Positions 23,729-23,818 of a DNA stretch of 64,000 nt are shown one piece after another. The notes beneath the pieces are model-generated. The model ran no database searches and was not told where the DNA came from. It worked only from the letters and a program-made list of their open reading frames with translations. Position 1 is the first letter of the stretch. Each line of letters starts with the position of its first letter. Origin of the DNA: Escherichia coli (GTDB taxonomy: Bacteria > Pseudomonadota > Gammaproteobacteria > Enterobacterales > Enterobacteriaceae); NCBI RefSeq assembly GCF_003334305.1, contig NZ_QOWS01000014.1, one strand, 5' to 3'. Position numbers and translations under genes: made by a program.

Positions 23729-23818
23729 ATGGCAGAAGCATTTTACATCCTGATAGGATTTCTGATTATGGCGGCGATTATCGTCATGGCTGTCCTTTAC
23801 CTCGAAAACCACTCCTGA
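23729..23818 (+). CDS. Candidate small hydrophobic protein (29 aa, one predicted transmembrane helix)
   Basis: ATG-initiated frame MAEAFYILIGFLIMAAIIVMAVLYLENHS located downstream of the rnk terminator; stop lies 3 nt from the convergent ybdR stop. No strong Shine-Dalgarno sequence (GGGAAT about 9 nt upstream). Confidence 0.3.
   Translation: MAEAFYILIGFLIMAAIIVMAVLYLENHS

Follow-up and report, generated by a model that had tools for sequence, protein, structure and literature searches.

The small membrane protein gene yldA between rnk and ybdR of Escherichia coli, and the probable homology of its product with YoaI

The window, a stretch of 64,000 nucleotides of Escherichia coli DNA, carries an open reading frame (ORF) of 29 codons downstream of rnk and facing the convergent gene ybdR. 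The features of the locus, in window coordinates, are as follows:

23181..23591, + strand: rnk (nucleoside diphosphate kinase regulator), same-strand upstream neighbour of yldA, used as synteny anchor.
23592..23728, + strand: rnk-yldA spacer of 137 nt, the leader of yldA, from the alignment of orthologous loci.
23625..23646, + strand: rnk 3' hairpin, AGAGGATGC-ACTC-GCATCCTCT, 9 bp, between rnk and yldA.
23717..23719, + strand: alternative in-frame GTG, 4 codons 5' of the ATG (33-aa form), in a few old annotations.
23719..23722, + strand: Shine-Dalgarno-like GGGA, with a 6-nt spacer before the yldA ATG.
23729..23818, + strand: yldA coding sequence, MAEAFYILIGFLIMAAIIVMAVLYLENHS, from the ORF listing, family models and orthologues.
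23822..25060, - strand: ybdR (Zn-dependent alcohol dehydrogenase, 412-aa ORF), convergent, a facultative neighbour.
25281..25709, + strand: uspG, the next conserved neighbour, directly 3' of yldA in genomes that lack ybdR.

The ORF starts with ATG (23729-23731), comprises 29 sense codons including the ATG and ends with TGA (23816-23818); the coordinates, length and stop position given in an initial annotation of this DNA were all accurate when checked against the sequence. The product has a mean Kyte-Doolittle hydropathy of 2.71 over residues 4-25, which fits one transmembrane helix, and a single Arg or His on its C-terminal side provides a weak positive-inside signal. The ORF is almost certainly yldA, a conserved and translated gene with a 29-residue product which, under the same joint assessment, is nearly all one hydrophobic helix (approximately residues 4-25) followed by a polar tail of 4 residues.

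The counterpart in E. coli K-12 MG1655 is yldA (b4734), located at 643330-643419 between ybdR and rnk (NC_000913.3). The YldA of the window is identical to K-12 b4734 and to the YldA given in Table 1 of PMC6001520, and nothing distinguishes it from the K-12 protein, the sequence and the position between rnk and ybdR being the same. It was matched over its entire length (1-29 of 29) by the NCBIfam equivalog model NF041476, "small membrane protein YldA", at 57.9 bits against a cutoff of 45, and by the Pfam family PF23689, "YldA-like", at 72.8 bits (E = 1.4e-20). RefSeq labels the ORF "small membrane protein YldA", and the exact protein sequence carries the UniProt entry name YLDA_ECOLI among its names. 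The yldA region is 100% identical in many complete E. coli genomes in which it is annotated as yldA, and among the full-length E. coli megablast matches listed, every one was annotated "yldA: small membrane protein YldA". The initial description of the ORF as unannotated-looking was wrong in view of these K-12, NCBIfam, Pfam and UniProt entries.

YldA is among the small proteins detected by VanOrsdel et al. in 2018 (PMC6001520) by chromosomal SPA tagging and immunoblotting. The tag was placed at the chromosomal 3' end of each small ORF and the appearance of a novel immunoblot band was taken as evidence of synthesis, in cells grown in rich medium (LB) to exponential and/or stationary phase with no imposed stress. 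Chromosomal tagging, one of the checks suggested in the initial annotation, had accordingly already given a positive result in published work. The proposal of a small membrane protein gene was borne out by conservation and by this published detection of the protein, the single membrane pass being predicted. A literature search on E. coli yldA found the gene in lists only. yldA is already known: it has been named, annotated and, since 2018, experimentally detected.

Orthologues were obtained from Rnk-anchored loci of 80 species-representative Enterobacteriaceae genomes which, together with the window, yielded 81 loci. A YldA-like ORF was present downstream of rnk in 36 of the 81, always on the strand of rnk, in Escherichia, some Citrobacter, Enterobacter, Lelliottia, Leclercia, Pseudenterobacter, Phytobacter and one Kosakonia. 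No yldA was found downstream of rnk in the other 45 loci, including those of Salmonella and Kluyvera, and the gene is therefore dispensable in many relatives. An ATG lies exactly 29 codons before the stop in all 36 orthologues. Their consensus is MxEILxITLxFLIxxAIIVxAVLYLERHW, with residues M1, E3, A21, V22, L25 and E26 invariant; positions 16-26, comprising the predicted cytoplasmic-leaflet half of the helix and the tail, are the best conserved stretch.

Variable sites numbered 19, 18 and 28 of 28 at codon positions 1, 2 and 3, respectively. Read in the yldA frame, the sequences gave a pooled pN/pS of 0.385 (Jukes-Cantor dN/dS 0.22), and the other two frames gave 1.3 and 1.6; E3, A21, V22, L25 and E26 were each encoded by 2-4 synonymous codons across the orthologues (A21 by GCC, GCA, GCG and GCT; L25 by CTT, CTC and CTG). 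yldA is under purifying selection at the protein level, and the codon-level conservation proposed initially as a check on the ORF was found. A chance intergenic ORF, neither translated nor functional, might be suspected from the short length, the lack of a promoter by scan and the modest Shine-Dalgarno (SD) sequence. It is the conservation, not the ORF itself, that marks yldA as more than chance, and with the curated family models and the published immunoblot it has already refuted this reading, the probability of which is negligible.

Conservation at the level of RNA or DNA, with the peptide incidental, was also considered; the conserved element would in that case be the 3' end or terminator of ybdR, the 3' UTR of rnk or the excludon overlap. 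The tight packing of yldA between rnk and ybdR, the invariant hairpin upstream, the listing of ybdR-yldA as an excludon (PMC12288877) and the folding of the rnk-yldA spacer RNA, which is better than that of shuffled sequences (z = -3.75), are all in keeping with such a role. However, third positions vary in 28 of 28 codons while six amino acids are invariant with 2-4 synonymous codons each, dN/dS is low in the yldA frame only, the ORF length and the ATG are invariant, and yldA is kept in the absence of ybdR and its protein has been detected (PMC6001520). The variety of synonymous codons and the low in-frame dN/dS exclude a chance ORF as well as a purely RNA- or DNA-level constraint, and to the latter only a very slight probability is assigned.

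The duplex formed with the anti-SD sequence at the yldA start was calculated as -4.2 kcal/mol, which surpasses 86% of random 18-mers (random median -2.2), as compared with a median of -4.1 kcal/mol at the first-ATG starts of long ORFs in the window. The mean over the 36 yldA orthologues was -5.6, and a G-rich block occupies the equivalent leader position across genera. The SD sequence had been called weak; measured against the long ORFs of the window it is ordinary, and that description was overstated. Two longer forms were rejected. A 33-aa ORF would begin at GTG 23717, and the protein P0013 is a 33-aa annotation variant of YldA; 10 of the 36 orthologues have an in-frame start codon at this position, 33 codons from the stop (GTG in nine loci, ATG in locus L051), and only the ATG 29 codons before the stop is universal (36/36). 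The same universality led to the rejection of a 62-aa ORF from ATG 23630, a codon that also lies within the stem of the hairpin.

In 34 of the 36 loci, about 126-147 nt separate the yldA ATG from the stop codon of rnk. The hairpin in this spacer has a stem whose sequence is invariant over 12 genera (nine pairs, none covarying), whereas the loop and the flanking sequence are free to vary. All 36 loci that carry yldA have the hairpin, as do 31 of the 46 that lack yldA; the element thus belongs to rnk, and its assignment as a yldA-specific element was rejected. The stem is followed by TTT alone (three T residues) and a consensus scan scored no terminator there, the hairpin being a poor intrinsic terminator. 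The perfect conservation of the 8-9 bp palindrome suggests a sequence-specific binding site, for either protein or RNA, rather than a generic terminator.

The initial annotation had regarded the hairpin as the rnk terminator, such that yldA would need its own promoter. A hairpin does lie between rnk and the ORF, but its T-tract is poor and the need for a promoter is unproven. A promoter scan of the spacer found no sigma-70-like site; the only match falls within yldA itself, and one match is about what chance would give (0.7 expected). A -10-like AATTAT at 23699-23704, noted by eye, was dropped as it is not convincingly conserved in the alignment of orthologue leaders (alignment A1). Given the poor T-tract and the lack of a scanned promoter, read-through from rnk is as plausible as a separate weak promoter, and the yldA transcript would arise either by read-through of the hairpin or from a weak promoter within the 137-nt spacer. 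An Rfam search of 23400-24000 returned noise only (CyVA-1, 14.7 bits against a gathering threshold of 41.4).

Two further elements were observed in these leaders. A second small hairpin is present in the 3' region of rnk (AAGCG-ATAACT-CGCTT, 23604-23619, + strand). In contrast to the main hairpin, which is invariant, it has at least one change that looks compensatory, found in Citrobacter amalonaticus (AAGCA...TGCTT). Leaders of Enterobacter and Lelliottia (L026, L032, L035, L044 and others) contain the direct repeat CTTAATCC(A/G)GGCTTAATCCG approximately 20-45 nt 5' of yldA, in columns 115-135 of alignment A1 and just 5' of the G-rich SD block; E. coli leaders are without it. The repeat may be bound by a regulator specific to the genus.

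On its 3' side yldA is separated from the ybdR stop by 3 nt (23819-23821), as first described, and the spacing is equal in K-12, where ybdR ends at 643326 and yldA starts at 643330. The gap between the two convergent genes is 2-10 nt wherever both are present in the Rnk-anchored loci. When ybdR is present the transcripts of the two genes would necessarily overlap. The pair ybdR-yldA is included in the list of E. coli convergent excludons produced with ExcludonFinder (PMC12288877), a label denoting transcription that overlaps in 50% or more of RNA-seq samples, and yldA and ybdR both appear in the affected-genes table of a fluoride-stress transcriptome (PMC10100675), above the down-regulated heading. 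Across genera, yldA occurs with or without ybdR, and ybdR occurs without yldA, e.g. in Salmonella.

A megablast search with the spacer plus the ORF as query was conducted against 5,426 complete E. coli genomes. The full region was present in 3,603 of these, representing the K-12 type (YldA ending in ENHS, with ybdR), and approximately one third of the genomes matched the first 61 nt of the query only. An alternative haplotype, found in 1,817 genomes, has a very divergent yldA, MSEALGITAFYIFIAAIIVAAVLYLEQRW (ending in EQRW), between rnk and uspG with ybdR absent; together the two haplotypes account for 5,420 of the 5,426 genomes. Similarity between them at the DNA level ends 61 nt past the rnk stop (window 23592-25060 compared with L002 3001-3355). 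The K-12-type YldA resembles the forms of Citrobacter amalonaticus and C. sedlakii, MNETFSILLGFFIMAAIIVGAVLYLENHW, and the comparison hints that the K-12-type rnk-uspG segment may have been replaced by horizontal transfer. yldA is single-copy, with a median of 1 place per genome among the complete E. coli genomes.

Two unusual arrangements were encountered. On a single metagenome scaffold (ERZ28624427; L088 2703-2906), the alternative yldA runs in frame, after its codons 1-19, into the leader, yldA and ybdR of the K-12 type, with 8-11 nt of microhomology (CAGCAATTxTT) at the fusion point; this creates a 67-aa ORF that matches YldA twice. The hybrid could have arisen in nature, as an intermediate of recombination between the haplotypes, or could be a chimera made during assembly. 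E. coli HS-02 (NZ_CP172818.1; L089 1875-2001) has an unannotated yldA of the alternative type with a frameshift or a partial deletion. HS-02 is the one complete genome encountered with an alternative-type yldA disrupted in this way, and its rnk-uspG spacer is 278 nt, compared with 355 nt in L002.

The arrangement with ybdR raises the possibility that YldA resembles the type I toxins and harms the membrane when it is produced, with the convergent ybdR transcript acting as an antisense repressor. YldA is a short hydrophobic peptide, with the ybdR stop only 3 nt away the transcripts are bound to overlap in antisense, and ybdR-yldA is one of the published excludons (PMC12288877); overexpression of YoaI, a small membrane protein compared with YldA below, lengthens the lag phase (PMC11429745). 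Against this, a third of E. coli genomes and many genera keep yldA without ybdR, no known toxin or antitoxin RNA family rose above noise in Rfam, tagged YldA accumulates from its native locus in rich medium (PMC6001520) and specific polar residues (E3, T8, E26 and R27) are conserved, not hydrophobicity alone. Peptides of type I toxin-antitoxin systems have a dedicated antisense or overlapping sRNA antitoxin, are often multicopy and are toxic when expressed; at yldA no such RNA was matched in Rfam and the gene is single-copy. The single copy, the retention without ybdR, the conserved polar residues and the accumulation of protein from the native locus therefore make a toxin role very improbable.

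Profile and alignment comparisons indicate that YldA and YoaI are very probably homologous subfamilies of one small-protein superfamily. The YldA of the window scored 22.5 bits against the NCBIfam YoaI model NF041475, below the cutoff of 45, and 10 of 10 diverse YldA orthologues matched the model at 20.7-34.9 bits (E 1e-8 to 3e-4), likewise below the cutoff; YldA is not a YoaI equivalog. For 9 of the 11 YldA proteins, residues 3-29 (3-28 in the window protein) were aligned on model positions 8-34, and the remaining two start slightly later on the model with the register unchanged. No other small-protein family gave a comparable score among the NCBIfam matches of YldA. Conversely, E. coli YoaI scored 18.9 bits against a hidden Markov model (HMM) built from the 36 YldA sequences alone. 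None of 20,000 composition-preserving shuffles came as high, the top one scoring 14.1, and 2,475 natural small-ORF decoys gave 4.6 bits at most against the YldA HMM. Both tests, with shuffles and with natural decoys, led to the rejection of a compositional origin of the similarity.

YoaI is 28-48% identical to the YldA orthologues in the joint alignment. Columns common to YoaI and YldA are E8/E3, T13/T8, V27/V22, L28/L23, E31/E26 and R32/R27, and those invariant over both families are E8/E3, V27/V22 and E31/E26. The YoaI residues S26, V27 and E31 correspond, at a fixed offset of 5 residues, to A21, V22 and E26 of YldA, a trio that is invariant in 36 of 36 orthologues; the invariant Ser26 of YoaI is replaced by Ala (A21) in every YldA.

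A profile search of 1.84 billion cluster representatives yielded 64 proteins, comprising both families and forms that bridge them. The bridging forms, e.g. MNDPAFFDTLCITAVFLVIASALVMSVLYLERRW, combine the N-terminus and length of the YoaI type with a tail of the YldA type (P0067, ...SVLYLERRW; P0074, ...SVLYLERRH; P0080, ...AVRYLERRW) and are recorded as matches to PF23689. Their genes sit at the yoaI locus, with a DUF441 (yeaL) gene on one side and a convergent tRNA_edit (yeaK) gene on the other; at two places of P0074 the DUF441 position is taken by a gene for an AraC-type regulator or an MFS transporter. E. coli YoaI gave no match to PF23689 even at E <= 10. YldA falling below the NF041475 cutoff and YoaI lying outside PF23689, the two are distinct subfamilies and need not share a partner. 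The databases capture the relation in part only, PF23689 being recorded on YoaI-locus proteins of other genera and NCBIfam holding two separate equivalogs. A literature search found no paper connecting YldA with YoaI.

YoaI (b1788; NF041475; 34 aa) is, like YldA, a single helix with the same aligned C-terminal end, whereas YldA is without the 5 N-terminal residues of YoaI; the tail is ERTG in E. coli YoaI and ERHW or ENHS in YldA. The gene order also differs, being yeaL-yoaI-convergent yeaK at the yoaI locus and rnk-(ybdR)-uspG for yldA, which does not occupy the YoaI locus. Each of the two genes comes within 0-10 nt of a convergent gene, and both pairs, yoaI-yeaK and ybdR-yldA, are present in the published E. 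coli excludon list (PMC12288877). The gap between yoaI and yeaK was 0 nt in K-12 (L083 5079-5183), and 0-8 nt or an overlap in other genera (L084-L087). Such tight convergent overlap at the 3' end may have a regulatory role common to the YldA/YoaI family, or it may be a coincidence.

YoaI has been characterised by Vellappan et al. (PMC11429745) as a membrane protein induced by PhoR-PhoB, which binds EnvZ in a two-hybrid assay (BACTH) and activates EnvZ-OmpR reporters. The same study reported S26, V27 and E31 as invariant in YoaI and placed E31 in the predicted cytoplasmic tail, where the substitutions E31A and E31Q abolish both EnvZ binding and the activation of omrB. Of the two proteins, YoaI alone is known to be induced by PhoB and to bind EnvZ.

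Several short single-pass proteins act by binding a larger membrane protein, including MgrB (PhoQ), MzrA (EnvZ), AcrZ (AcrB) and MgtS (MgtA). These four are of the same general kind as the predicted YldA (<=50 aa or otherwise short); no sequence relationship with YldA was detected for them, and none is among its NCBIfam matches. YldA would insert in the inner membrane as a single pass, on balance with its N-terminus out and its C-terminus in, by analogy with the orientation predicted for YoaI. It would bind a larger inner-membrane protein through the half-helix A16-IIV-x-AVLYL and the E26-R27 tail, and binding would change the activity of that partner. A role for YldA as a single-pass inner-membrane modulator of a larger membrane protein, exerted through the Glu26 tail, is proposed tentatively, at somewhat less than even probability. 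By homology, a sensor histidine kinase would be the leading candidate for the partner. In the fuller form of this proposal, by analogy with YoaI, YldA may be a functional paralogue of YoaI, with Glu26 tuning a sensor histidine kinase (EnvZ or another) as a second YoaI-like signalling input, which we regard as unlikely; that the partner might be EnvZ specifically is more improbable still.

Among the small membrane proteins of E. coli that have been characterised, the majority have a transporter or a respiratory enzyme as their target. This background favours a different role for YldA, in which it would assist or stabilise a complex, either a transporter or an enzyme, as an accessory subunit comparable to those in AcrZ-AcrB, CydX-CydAB, KdpF and MgtS-MgtA. 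Conservation in the cytoplasmic-leaflet half of the helix extends to every face, as expected if it were buried in a complex, the YldA subfamily is distinct from YoaI, and the protein was detected in rich medium without imposed stress (PMC6001520). No transporter or enzyme gene is consistently adjacent, however, the neighbours being rnk, the optional ybdR and uspG, and the sole characterised homologue, YoaI, acts on a histidine kinase via the glutamate that YldA conserves. The accessory subunit is the main rival to the modulator model, with a probability only slightly below that of the latter.

As a discovery the yldA ORF carries little weight, since the gene was already known; it serves as a clean positive control, a small membrane protein gene that is recognisable from raw sequence. 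The relationship with YoaI and the testable hypothesis concerning Glu26 are the only additions made here to what was known of yldA. The former gives YldA a concrete and cheaply testable hypothesis of function, centred on EnvZ or other kinases and on E26. The two divergent yldA haplotypes of E. coli, tied to the presence or absence of ybdR, offer a handle on the diversification of small-protein regulators between lineages. If YldA is indeed a YoaI-like input to a kinase, these haplotypes (ENHS with ybdR, EQRW without), together with the convergent overlap, could vary signalling by lineage.
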